Assembly (NCBI GenBank): GCA_964016885.1
Contig: OZ024742.1
Coordinates: 139,748,001-139,812,000, forward strand
Length of the DNA stretch: 64,000 nucleotides
Direction: 5' to 3'
Source of the DNA: Eledone cirrhosa
Lineage: Eukaryota
Below the pieces are notes generated by a model, which was not told the DNA's origin, made no database searches, and saw only the letters and a list, made by a program, of their open reading frames with translations. The translations under genes were made by a program, and so were the position numbers. Positions 10,204 through 37,869 of the stretch are shown here, piece by piece; the first letter of the stretch is position 1, and the number at the start of each line of letters is the position of its first letter.

Positions 10204-10246
10204 ACGGTGCTGATGATAGCTAACAAGCTTGAAACTAGTACATCGT
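10204..10246 (+). ncRNA. Type I hammerhead ribozyme, family A
   Basis: acggtg-CTGATGA-tagc TAACAA gctt-GAAA-ctag-TA-catcgt; copies at 8936-8978, 9446-9488, 13206, 13674, 14142, 14610 (-) and 14861, 15530 (+). Confidence 0.9.
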
Positions 10247-10435
10247 TCCTGTGTCAGTGTTGAACAAAAAGGTGACGTGGTTGCCTTAACACCGTATGGC
10301 ATACATTCAGGCTGTTCAGTTTGTTTACAAACGAACAAAGCGGCGTTATAATAAGCGTCCGCTAAACTGATGCGTGCATATATGTATGTGTACCTGTATG
10401 TATATGTATATATATATATATATATATATATATAT

Positions 10436-12642
10436 AAATTGGAATAAATGCTCTGAAATAGCGATATATATGTGAATATAGACACAGAATATTCGAAAAT
10501 ATTCTGTATGTTTATAATAAACATTTTGAAGACCTAATCGCTATAGAATAGAATACGTCACGTATTACAATTAGATTCTCGATAAAAGCAAGGGAAGTAA
10601 GTCTACGCGTTTCATTCTTGTTAGAATTCATCAGGACTACATATCCAGTGCTTTTATCGAGAATGACACAGCTAGAGACTTATAGAATACTTAGCTGTGT
10701 ACAGGAACTGGTTTGAAAGAGCGGTTGCCGGTCCGGCAGAAATTAGAAATTGGAATAAATGCTCTGAAATAGCGATATATATGTGAATATAGACACAGAA
10801 TATTCGAAAATATTCTGTATGTTTATAATAAACATTTTGAAGACCTAATCGCTATAGAATAGAATACGTCACGTATTACAATTAGATTCTCGATAAAAGC
10901 AAGGGAAGTAAGTCTACGCGTTTCATTCTTGTTAGAATTCATCAGGACTACATATCCAGTGCTTTTATCGAGAATGACACAGCTAGAGACTTATAGAATA
11001 CTTAGCTGTGTACAGGAACTGGTTTGAAAGAGCGGTTGCCGGTCCGGCAGAAATTAGAAATTGGAATAAATGCTCTGAAATAGCGATATATATGTGAATA
11101 TAGACACAGAATATTCGAAAATATTCTGTATGTTTATAATAAACATTTTGAAGACCTAATCGCTATAGAATAGAATACGTCACGTATTACAATTAGATTC
11201 TCGATAAAAGCAAGGGAAGTAAGTCTACGCGTTTCATTCTTGTTAGAATTCATCAGGACTACATATCCAGTGCTTTTATCGAGAATGACACAGCTAGAGA
11301 CTTATAGAATACTTAGCTGTGTACAGGAACTGGTTTGAAAGAGCGGTTGCCGGTCCGGCAGAAATTAGAAATTGGAATAAATGCTCTGAAATAGCGATAT
11401 ATATGTGAATATAGACACAGAATATTCGAAAATATTCTGTATGTTTATAATAAACATTTTGAAGACCTAATCGCTATAGAATAGAATACGTCACGTATTA
11501 CAATTAGATTCTCGATAAAAGCAAGGGAAGTAAGTCTACGCGTTTCATTCTTGTTAGAATTCATCAGGACTACATATCCAGTGCTTTTATCGAGAATGAC
11601 ACAGCTAGAGACTTATAGAATACTTAGCTGTGTACAGGAACTGGTTTGAAAGAGCGGTTGCCGGTCCGGCAGAAATTAGAAATTGGAAAATATTCTGTGT
11701 CTATATTCACATATATATCGCTATTTCAGAGCATTTATTCCAATTTCTAATTTCTGCCGGACCGGCAACCGCTCTTTCAAACCAGTTCCTGTACACAGCT
11801 AAGTATTCTATAAGTCTCTAGCTGTGTCATTCTCGATAAAAGCACTGGATATGTAGTCCTGATGAATTCTAACAAGAATGAAACGCGTAGACTTACTTCC
11901 CTTGCTTTTATCGAGAATCTAATTGTAATACGTGACGTATTCTATTCTATAGCGATTAGGTCTTCAAAATGTTTATTATAAACATACAGAATATTTTCGA
12001 ATATTCTGTGTCTATATTCACATATATATCGCTATTTCAGAGCATTTATTCCAATTTCTAATTTCTGCCGGACCGGCAACCGCTCTTTCAAACCAGTTCC
12101 TGTACACAGCTAAGTATTCTATAAGTCTCTAGCTGTGTCATTCTCGATAAAAGCACTGGATATGTAGTCCTGATGAATTCTAACAAGAATGAAACGCGTA
12201 GACTTACTTCCCTTGCTTTTATCGAGAATCTAATTGTAATACGTGACGTATTCTATTCTATAGCGATTAGGTCTTCAAAATGTTTATTATAAACATACAG
12301 AATATTTTCGAATATTCTGTGTCTATATTCACATATATATCGCTATTTCAGAGCATTTATTCCAATTTCTAATTTCTGCCGGACCGGCAACCGCTCTTTC
12401 AAACCAGTTCCTGTACACAGCTAAGTATTCTATAAGTCTCTAGCTGTGTCATTCTCGATAAAAGCACTGGATATGTAGTCCTGATGAATTCTAACAAGAA
12501 TGAAACGCGTAGACTTACTTCCCTTGCTTTTATCGAGAATCTAATTGTAATACGTGACGTATTCTATTCTATAGCGATTAGGTCTTCAAAATGTTTATTA
12601 TAAACATACAGAATATTTTCGAATATTCTGTGTCTATATTCA
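10436..12642. mobile_element. Retrozyme-like family B: 311-bp HHR unit, 4 copies plus 3 inverted copies
   Basis: aaattggaa at 10436, 10747, 11058, 11369, 11680; inversion at 11689; units appear identical; flanked by (TA)n. Confidence 0.9.
11855..11893 (+). ncRNA. Type I hammerhead ribozyme, family B
   Basis: agtc-CTGATGA-attc TAACAA gaat-GAAA-cgcg-TA-gact, distal 16-bp stem attctcgataaaagca/tgcttttatcgagaat; copies at 12166, 12477 (+) and 10600, 10911, 11222, 11533 (-). Confidence 0.92.
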
Positions 12643-12904
12643 TATATATATATATATATATATATATATATGCATGCTACTGTACGTCTGTATACATATA
12701 TGTATGTACGTATACATACATACTTACATTTAAGTAAGTGCCATACTAAGAGTGAGAAATGAAATTTCGTTTTCATTTTTTTTTTTTCAACTTATATATA
12801 TATATATTTATATATATATATATTTATATATGTATAAATTTATATATATATATATATATATATATTTATATATATATATATTTATATATATATATATTTA
12901 TATA

Positions 12905-35797: not shown

Positions 35798-36342
35798 TGA
35801 AAAAATGGGGAGAAGAATACTGCAGGTTGCACATGGATAACATGTAATAAAATAAGTCCCTCATCAGTGATTTGCCGACGATCATAGATATTTCATTGCA
35901 TTAAAAATCACATACCTCACGTCGGTGCAATAATAACTAAATTAAGTTATTAGGACAATTAAAACGCGTAAAGCGAGTGAGACAAGATAACAACAAAGAG
36001 GAGAGCTAACCGTAGAAGGAAGGGAACAAGCTTCATAGTTATTCTGTTAGCATAAGCTAGGTGAATATATGAGCGTTTAGAAAAAAGACCTTTCGGGAAC
36101 GAATTCAAATGTGAGAAAGAGAGAAAATGTTTTCGTCGCGAACGGGGTGAAGTGAGAAGAGGAGAAATAGTGAATGAGTGGGTGGAAGTGTGAGGAAGAG
36201 TTAACTGACATGACAGAGGGGGCGAAAGAAATTAGGAGAAACAGAGAGAACGAGGGAGCAGTAAGAGAGGGAGAGAGAAAAAAACAGAATCGCAGTTTAG
36301 GTAAATATATGTGAAAAAATGGGGAGAAGAATACTGCAGGTT
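35798..36342 (-). mobile_element. 513-bp unit with about 32-bp direct terminal repeat and degenerate HHR, in (TA)n
   Basis: tgaaaaaatggggagaagaatactgcaggtt at both ends; tcatcag at 35861. Confidence 0.5.
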
Positions 36343-36968
36343 ATATATATATATATATATATATATATATATATATATATATATATATATATATATATAT
36401 ATATATATATATATATATATATATATATATGTATATATATATATGTATATATATATATGTATATATATATATGTATATATATATATGTATATATATATAT
36501 GTATATATATATATGTATATATATATATATATGTATATATATATATATATATATGTATATATATATATGTATGTATATATATGTATGTATATATATATGT
36601 ATGTATATATATGTATGTATATATATGTATGTATATATATATATGTATATATATATATGTATATATATATGTATATATATATATATGTATATATATATAT
36701 ATATATATATATATATGTATATATATATATATATATATATATGTATATATATATATATATATATATATATATGTATATATATATATATATATGTATATAT
36801 ATATATGTATATATATATATATGTATATATATATGTATATATATATATATGTATATATATATAGATGTATATATATATATATGTATATATATATATGTAT
36901 ATATATATATATATGTATATATATATATATGTATATATATATATGTATATATATATGTATATATATAT

Positions 36969-37869
36969 AAACAATTAAGTTAAAAAATGTACATCTACAT
37001 ATGCATACGGAAATACTAGTATGCATATGAATACACACACGTATACATATGTAGATGTACCAAGTCTTTCACTGGTTACTTTACTGTGAGTAATCCAGCT
37101 ATTCTGTATGTAAACACACAGACAAACCGGTTTTTAGAGTCATACTGGTTTTCGAGGAAACACCTTTCCTCTATTCTACAGAAAGCCAGACAAGGAATAT
37201 TGAACTAGTTTCGTTGTTGTTACAACTCATCAGCAATATTTACCTATCTACCGGCCTTTCTGGAGAATTGTAAAAGCACATATCGTTATATGCTTTTTCT
37301 ATGAAAATTAGTAGTGGGCAGACTAATTTGCATAGAGTGTGAGTACGTACCGGTTCAACGGAGACGATAAAAACAAATAACGAAACGAAATTAAATTTCG
37401 TTTCGTTTGTAACTCACTTTTGTATGACTGACGCTTAAACAATTAAGTTAAAAAATGTACATCTACATATGCATACTGAAATACTAGTATGCATATGAAT
37501 ACACACACGTATACACGGTAGATAGGTAAATATTGCTGATGAGTTGTAACAACAACGAAACTAGTTCAATATTCCTTGTCTGGCTTTCTGTAGAATAGAG
37601 GAAAGGTGTTTCCTCGAAAACCAGTATGACTCTAAAAACCGGTTTGTCTGTGTGTTTACATACAGAATAGCTGGATTACTCACAGTAAAGTAACCAGTGA
37701 AACACTTGGTACATCTACATATGTATACGTGTGTGTATTCATATGCATACTAGTATTTCAGTATGCATATGTAGATGTACATTTTTTAACTTAATTGTTT
37801 AAGCGTCAGTCATACAAAAGTGAGTTACAAACGAAACGAAATTTAATTTCGTTTCGTTATTTGTTTTTA
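36969..37869. mobile_element. Retrozyme-like family C: 468-bp HHR unit, fold-back
   Basis: aaacaattaagtt at 36969 and 37437; inversion at about 37516; HHR at 37196-37240 (-) and 37529-37573 (+); (TA)n on both sides. Confidence 0.88.
37529..37573 (+). ncRNA. Type I hammerhead ribozyme, family C
   Basis: aatattg-CTGATGA-gttg TAACAA caac-GAAA-ctag-TT-caatatt. Confidence 0.92.

Follow-up and report, generated by a model that had tools for sequence, protein, structure and literature searches.

Abundant hammerhead arrays of Eledone cirrhosa: canonical type I ribozymes in probable retrozymes with Penelope-type insertion marks

A 64,000-nucleotide stretch of the Eledone cirrhosa genome (GenBank assembly GCA_964016885.1, contig OZ024742.1, positions 139,748,001 to 139,812,000 of the forward strand; hereafter the window) carries three kinds of hammerhead ribozyme, A, B and C, each with the six-letter loop UAACAA on helix II, which raises the question of whether this loop marks a new kind of ribozyme or a known one. 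An initial annotation of the window had taken the loop to be invariant across three divergent hammerheads, and proposed a distinct subclass in which UAACAA contacts stem I or binds a protein. We found that the ribozymes are of an ordinary, known kind and that UAACAA is the most frequent form taken by the standard hammerhead loop of six letters. The elements that carry them are, with high probability, high-copy non-LTR (long terminal repeat) retrozymes with canonical type I hammerheads, inserted in (TA)n by a Penelope-like reverse transcriptase (RT) and endonuclease.

The strings quoted in the initial annotation were all found in the window, which holds 18 hammerheads of these kinds, every one with the loop TAACAA: nine of A (three plus, six minus), seven of B (four minus, three plus) and two of C (37203-37233, minus; 37536-37566, plus). 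All three kinds are type I, and each copy has a full core, a helix II of 4 base pairs (bp), a 6-pair helix I, an internal loop and a distal helix (Table 1). The core elements CUGANGA, GAAA and UH, with an open helix I, are present in A, B and C; H17 is A in families A and B, and in C types it is either C or U. In A the basal pair of helix II is U.U (TAGC/GCTT), helix I of the window B copy contains a single bulged base, and the feature described earlier as a 'GGTAAA bulge' is the G-U-A-N strand of the internal loop, opposite U-C-C. The motif is far above chance in its own genome: a pattern joining the core, TAACAA and GAAAC gave 32,362 matches in 3.0 Gb, compared with five for the reversed pattern.

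We compared this anatomy (helix I of 6 bp, internal loop UCC:GUAN, helix II of 4 bp with a six-letter loop whose last letter is A, and a short palindromic helix III) with published hammerheads, using sequence patterns and counts of pairs. In the Schistosoma hammerhead the internal loop is UCCA:GUAC and the loop is CAAAUA, and the first internal-loop U forms a reverse Hoogsteen pair with the last A of loop 2, as described by Dufour et al. (PMC2632901); Chi et al. (PMC2553840) describe this A-U pair as the sole contact common to both hammerhead classes. Cervera and de la Pena (2014, PMC4209133) give the canonical metazoan hammerhead 6 bp in helix I, 4 bp in helix II and 1-2 bp, capped by a palindromic loop, in helix III. 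A, B and C share with Schistosoma mansoni Sm-alpha and with the Rfam families Hammerhead_1 and HH9 the core, the type I topology, the lengths of helices I and II and an A-rich six-letter loop ending in A. Rfam aligned all three to HH9 (RF02275), whose consensus has the six-letter loop CAAAAA and a 4-by-3 internal loop in the same place, and the consensus loop of Hammerhead_1 (RF00163) is CAAAUA. They differ from these models in that the loop starts with U in ~99% of copies, not C, that A and most B variants have U.U at the helix II base and that in B an A-U replaces one G-C next to the internal loop. Because their HH9 scores fell under the gathering threshold and their Hammerhead_1 scores were masked by the Rfam clan filter, we file A-C under neither family.

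Both partners of the Schistosoma-type contact, the last A of loop 2 and the first U of the internal loop, are present at the sequence level. Since both loops agree with the solved structure of the Schistosoma hammerhead and with the Rfam consensus loops, UAACAA very likely makes the loop 2-stem I contact, and to that extent the role proposed earlier is upheld; nothing requires a protein partner. The earlier claim of stem covariation was also borne out: among 22 aligned amplified variants (hand-picked sequences from three families, with a control that ignores relatedness), 94.4% of cells were paired, compared with 70.7% after shuffling, and the covariation score was 0.676, compared with 0.263. 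Helix I was paired in 97% and helix II in 86% of cells, the pair beside the internal loop was G-C in 15 variants and A-U in seven (B has A-U), a U directly followed helix I in 20 of the 22 and U.U stood at the base of helix II in 12.

Hammerheads of Penelope elements are described as usually minimal and lacking the canonical loop contacts (PMC6155905), and the contrast drawn earlier between A-C and the hammerheads of the window's coding Penelope-like elements is the published one between canonical and minimal forms (PMC4209133, PMC6155905). It is literally correct that none of the latter has UAACAA; however, in the minus-strand hammerhead of a further family, D, the six letters UUAAUA form the loop on a helix II of 4 bp (Table 1), and this hammerhead belongs to a coding Penelope-type family.

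Across the genome, 60,612 cores had the A/B/C geometry (core halves 14 letters apart, with a helix III spacer of two letters; counted as copies, not independent events), compared with 31 in the control, and ~19,262 of them were of the B type. The UAACAA loop was present in 31,802 (52%). Position 4 was changed (UAA-notC-N-A) in 21,946 cores, with UAAUAA accounting for 96 of the 100 such variants listed and occurring in A, B and C types, and position 5 was changed (UAAC-notA-A) in 4,948, all 100 of those listed being UAACGA in B. The form UAA-NN-A covered 58,696 cores (96.8%), and positions 1, 2, 3 and 6 jointly accounted for 1,916. A first letter other than U occurred in 578 cores, and an amplified B subfamily with AAAUAA, found at six places, made up 17 of the 100 listed. 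The last letter was A in 59,989 cores and another letter in 623; among the 100 listed, cores without the last A were mostly single dispersed copies, whereas changes at positions 4 and 5 filled whole arrays. The loop spectrum lies about U-A-A-Y-R-A, with the last A strictest among amplified variants. These ~60,000 canonical hammerheads provide a natural variant table, free at positions 4 and 5 and not at position 6, that fits the solved structure.

Because the loop varies among amplified genomic families, an outcome that the initial annotation had itself set against its proposal, an invariant-loop subclass is refuted: in addition to the variants above, CAACCA occurs in family E, a relative of B. 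A wider form of the proposal, in which UAACAA or UAAYRA marks off a subclass through a tertiary contact of its own or protein binding, would account for the U that stands first in 99% of cores where the Schistosoma/HH9 consensus has C, for the reach of UAA-NN-A, and for the presence of the loop in B without detectable homology to A or C elsewhere. We nevertheless consider it very improbable, given that UAACAA makes up barely half of the cores, that whole subfamilies were amplified with UAAUAA, UAACGA or AAAUAA, that E has a loop starting with C, and that the internal loop is the Schistosoma one; loop variability and a canonical Schistosoma-type anatomy both speak against a distinct class.

Related geometries were less enriched. 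Cores with the same 14-letter spacing and a longer helix III numbered 4,453, compared with 999 in the control, and among those listed were largely D and E, while spacings of 15-22 letters gave 770 cores, compared with 452, mostly from small or decayed families. Further abundant hammerhead families with short helix II loops were also seen (14,714 matches versus 1,407 in the control; for example, loci L213, L214 and L221).

Outside the ribozyme, A and C are homologous over ~380 nucleotides (nt; score 170, compared with a maximum of 43 in 200 shuffles), whereas B showed no homology to either (scores 32-35, within shuffles), and by these comparisons A, B and C form two lineages, A/C and B. The description of three divergent hammerheads is right in that all three are real, yet A and C, being homologous outside the ribozyme, are no independent examples. 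Family E, which has a longer helix III, scored above all shuffles against B downstream of the ribozyme at seven of seven loci (L208, L228, L230, L234, L235, L237 and L242, with cores near position 1500); these loci look older and join the B lineage to a loop that starts with C. We attribute the shared UAACAA to a standard structural constraint together with the common descent of A and C.

Descent could in principle suffice, if selection had gone and the copies were mostly dead, satellite-like DNA. Helices I, II and III are wholly different in B and in A/C, and yet pairing, palindromy, core and loop are all kept; copies that lost the last A are mostly single and dispersed among those listed, in contrast to the array-wide changes at positions 4 and 5. 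These patterns lead us to regard descent alone as highly unlikely, even with the A/C homology, the U.U at the helix II base in 12 of 22 variants and the young, near-identical arrays, which make most positions look conserved.

A point missed by the initial annotation is the self-complementarity of the helix III hexamer, which reads ACUAGU in families A and C and ACGCGU in B. When two consecutive units were folded, the fold of lowest energy contained the double-hammerhead helix in B (pair probability 0.91-1.0) and in C (0.46-0.48). The axolotl hammerhead Amex1 is described as having a dimeric design, with a one-pair helix III and a palindromic tetraloop (PMC7229834). A-C resemble this HHR_Amex1 (amphibian satellite-2 type) in the weak palindromic helix III and predicted dimeric design, A and most B variants resemble HHR_Amex2 in the U.U at the helix II base, and the weak helix III and the U.U occur together here.

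The units themselves are tandem and non-coding, with a GC content of 35-36% and lengths of 468 bp (A; longer wherever an inner TA run is expanded), 311 bp (B) and 466-467 bp (C), and only low-complexity read-through frames overlap A. A tRNA-derived origin was considered and rejected (ARAGORN, zero tRNA genes in the window). Tandem non-coding units of a few hundred bases, a GC content below 45% and a hammerhead in each unit are all found, which makes A, B and C likely non-LTR retrozymes, as predicted from sequence, by the definitions of Cervera and de la Pena (2020, PMC7229834) and of Li, Clavereau and Pollet (2026 preprint). They resemble the animal retrozymes described in those two sources both in having one canonical type I hammerhead per unit and in coexisting with Penelope-like elements that bear other hammerhead forms, and their ~60,000 cores compare with ~5,000 in mussel and ~120,000 in axolotl given in PMC7229834. 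Literature searches for hammerhead UAACAA loops, for cephalopod or octopus retrozymes and for Penelope-type microsatellite insertion returned nothing on these families, relatives of which may be listed in the supplements of PMC7229834 or the preprint.

The main value of the locus lies in its arrays. We sampled 20 B and 20 A/C stretches from the pattern listings (one contig, non-random), in which 18 of the 20 B arrays were divergent, with minus copies followed by plus copies and the reverse order in none. In all 18, the outer ends were fixed at monomer positions 140 on one side and 164-171 on the opposite side, and both adjoined TA-rich microsatellite. Each of the 20 B arrays held a single loop variant, and 113 of 118 full monomers matched the commonest monomer of their own array across both arms (window included, where five of five full B monomers are identical), compared with a median of four differences between arrays. 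Ends of C arrays lay at monomer positions 234-235 and 302-303, both being recovered in four arrays (one from two fetched stretches) and in the window copy, and short and long ends of A were seen in the window and at loci L168-L170. Whole-window detection of repeat families was dominated by (TA)n. Within the A cluster of the window, the B array occupies a (TA)n run, an arrangement in which retrozymes carry or create targets for each other.

Penelope-like insertions are described as having an inverted 5'-truncated arm, a 30-40-bp tail on one end and a bias for microsatellites (bioRxiv 2021.04.23.441226), and the same three marks were found in 18 of the 20 B arrays, in the four C arrays for which both ends were recovered and in the C copy of the window. 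Fixed unlike ends, divergent arms, a (TA)n target and one monomer per array together make single-step insertion by Penelope-like machinery likely, and tie retrozymes mechanically to that kind of insertion. Divergent two-armed arrays with a one-sided tail are not, to our knowledge, among the retrozyme features described in PMC7229834 or the 2026 preprint. A-C differ from Penelope-like elements in encoding no protein, forming long tandems and keeping full tertiary-contact loops.

Real ribozymes could also sit in arrays that grew in place from single inserted units by unequal crossover, the satellite route preferred by the 2026 preprint, which proposes local amplification, or that were copied without a circle from linear multimers of a homogeneous array. 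A multimeric linear transcript would equally yield identical copies, and 15 of 153 array pairs have the same monomer. In-place crossover fails as an explanation because the same monomer fills both inverted arms, the arms are of freely varying length and, in 18 of 18 divergent B arrays, each outer end has a fixed position that differs from that of the other. Overall, we regard this pair of alternatives as unlikely, although copying from a linear multimer may still apply.

Table 1 Features of the window discussed in the text (positions are those of the window).
Feature	Position	Strand or orientation	Details
Family A hammerhead (representative)	10204..10249	+	Helix I 10204-10209/10241-10246; core from 10210
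Family A helix II	10217-10230	+	U.U at base; loop 2 at 10221-10226
Family A helix III	10234-10239	+	Palindromic; predicted cut after 10240; internal-loop U-C-C 10247-10249
Family B hammerhead (representative)	11829..11918	+	Core 11859-11889; loop 2 11870-11875; helix III ACGCGU; predicted cut after 11889
Family B distal helix, 16 bp	11829-11844/11903-11918	+	
Family C hammerhead (plus copy)	37530..37575	+	Helix I 37530-37535/37567-37572; core at 37536; loop 2 37547-37552; predicted cut after 37566
Family A insertion cluster	8645..15915	both	468-bp unit; nine hammerheads; tandem and inverted blocks, split by B array; limits approximate
Family B array	10436..12651	four minus, then three plus copies, diverging at 11688/11689	311-bp unit; in (TA)n run inside A cluster
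Family B array ends	12651; 10436		Short end 12651; tailed end 10436, ~37 nt longer
Family C insertion	36969..37870	divergent inverted pair, junction 37515/37516	Flanked by (TA)n runs; tandem arrays elsewhere
Family C insertion ends	36969; 37870		Short end near 36969; tailed end 37870, ~68 nt longer
Octamer-like ATGCAAAT	10122..10129	+	~80 nt upstream of A core; counterpart in C on minus strand, 37326-37333
Family D inverted terminal-repeat fragment	21338..21617	inverted	Hammerhead 21499-21530 minus, loop UUAAUA; comparison point outside A-C; limits approximate

Several observations count against reading A-C as canonical, Penelope-inserted retrozymes. The HH9 scores were 38.6 bits for C (E 1.4e-8), 18.5 for A and 17.8 for B, and the gathering score of 52 was not reached; two of five covariation measures fell within the shuffles; and the U.U at the helix II base in A and most B variants may slow the ribozymes. 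The dimer fold was disfavoured for A (probability 0.02, 0.9 kcal/mol over the minimum). A and C units, at 467-468 bp, exceed the 170-400 nt given for retrozymes in PMC7229834; compared with animal retrozymes, the cleavage, transcript and circle of the units here are predictions from DNA; and in the 2026 preprint eight of nine predicted Xenopus retrozymes are reported without in vitro cleavage. Sampling bears on the same question, in the use of copies for core counts, of hand-picked relatives for covariation and of a non-random set for arrays, and the ends of A arrays were only partly callable, with automatic calling failing for most owing to inner TA runs. Finally, in a comparison of A, B and C with 14 regions flanking coding Penelope elements of the window, only short or low-complexity matches were seen.

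For retrozymes inserted in this way, the arrays suggest a mechanism. Multimeric transcripts are predicted to cut themselves into unit lengths, probably as dimers: the last A of loop 2 would pair (reverse Hoogsteen) with the first internal-loop U of helix I, as in Schistosoma, leaving positions 4 and 5 comparatively free, and the short palindromic helix III would let neighbouring hammerheads cut as a dimer while a monomer circle would be left weakly active. Units would then likely be circularised by a host ligase, as proposed in PMC7229834, and a TA-targeting Penelope-like enzyme may copy one template round repeatedly and insert the product in a single event, which would explain why the tandem copies are identical, why an inverted arm diverges from them and why only one end has a tail.

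More specifically, each two-armed array may be the footprint of a Penelope-like RT copying one hammerhead-made RNA circle into (TA)n, with the TA-targeting coding Penelope families of the window as helpers and with an octamer-type promoter of their own in A and C; we put this forward tentatively, as a proposal with a little less than an even chance of being right. If true, single-circle insertion would put the retrozyme life cycle, for which the case has until now been built on co-occurrence and on homology of terminal repeats, on direct genomic evidence, and the arrays in any case supply a concrete substrate and candidate helpers for a test of mobilisation. Coding family D is such a candidate helper. 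At locus L239 (1500-3031), its terminal repeat and tail run straight into a Penelope-type open reading frame (ORF) that gave a 51% identical match to one of the window's RTs; at L240 its hammerhead scored 29.1 bits, with helix II as in the Hammerhead_1 consensus; and its short and tailed ends lie in (TA)n, like those of the A-C arrays. Among the 14 window regions no sequence link from A-C to a coding element was found, and TTTCCATTT, which some A variants and two coding elements have in common near their ends, was rejected as too short to count as one.

A possible promoter element in A and C is ATGCAAAT, to which we apply the label 'octamer' as our own assumption. It lies 80-95 nt upstream of the core in 62 of 91 distinct A contexts and 33 of 41 C contexts (incomplete contexts counted), and its pairing partner in a hairpin varies while ATGCAAAT is kept. 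Newt satellite 2 is cited as having an internal snRNA-type promoter (PMC2220036). In contrast to that satellite, no proximal element common to A-C and the genome's own U2 genes was found: the octamer was absent within 350 nt upstream of U2 genes (five loci read, of 12 fetched), and when the region from -75 to -35 of one of the five was compared with A, B and C, local scores were weak and did not exceed 18. On these comparisons, an snRNA-type promoter link to the own U2 genes is not supported. The U2 snRNA genes include a tandem array with a period of ~2.2 kb (C3:307349256-307453739).

In three sequencing runs of other organisms from separate studies (X4, X5 and X6), one 340-letter contig each closed on itself over a 310-nt B variant, at a depth of 18-34 and with fully paired helices I and II, as at locus L147 (compared with window positions 11700-12010); a fourth run contained 507 varied contigs. 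The self-closing contigs are no evidence of expression, because tandem DNA gives the same joint and the kind of run is unrecorded.

The window also contains at least five broken coding Penelope-like copies from several families (4861-6625, 18040-19600, 38714-41103, 43404-44869 and 48443-51050), most with inverted arms and ends at (TA)n; a run of 200 N bases at ~4019-4218 masks the left end of the first. RVT_1 matches were weak and present in two of nine ORFs of the window's coding elements, and Atlas neighbours carry HTH_animal and RVT_1. In addition to these matches, the Penelope label rests in part on motifs that we take to be diagnostic. Hammerhead-like cores lie at 8246 (plus), 17447 (minus), 42451 (minus), 54186 (plus), 23619 (plus), 41365 (plus), 48203 (minus) and 51286 (plus), and those of the coding elements mostly have long helices II. 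Rfam microRNA matches in the window were set aside as artefacts of TA repeats and inverted junctions, and a histone 3' UTR (untranslated region) stem-loop match was recorded at 47343-47387 (minus; 34 bits, E 4.7e-6, at the gathering score).

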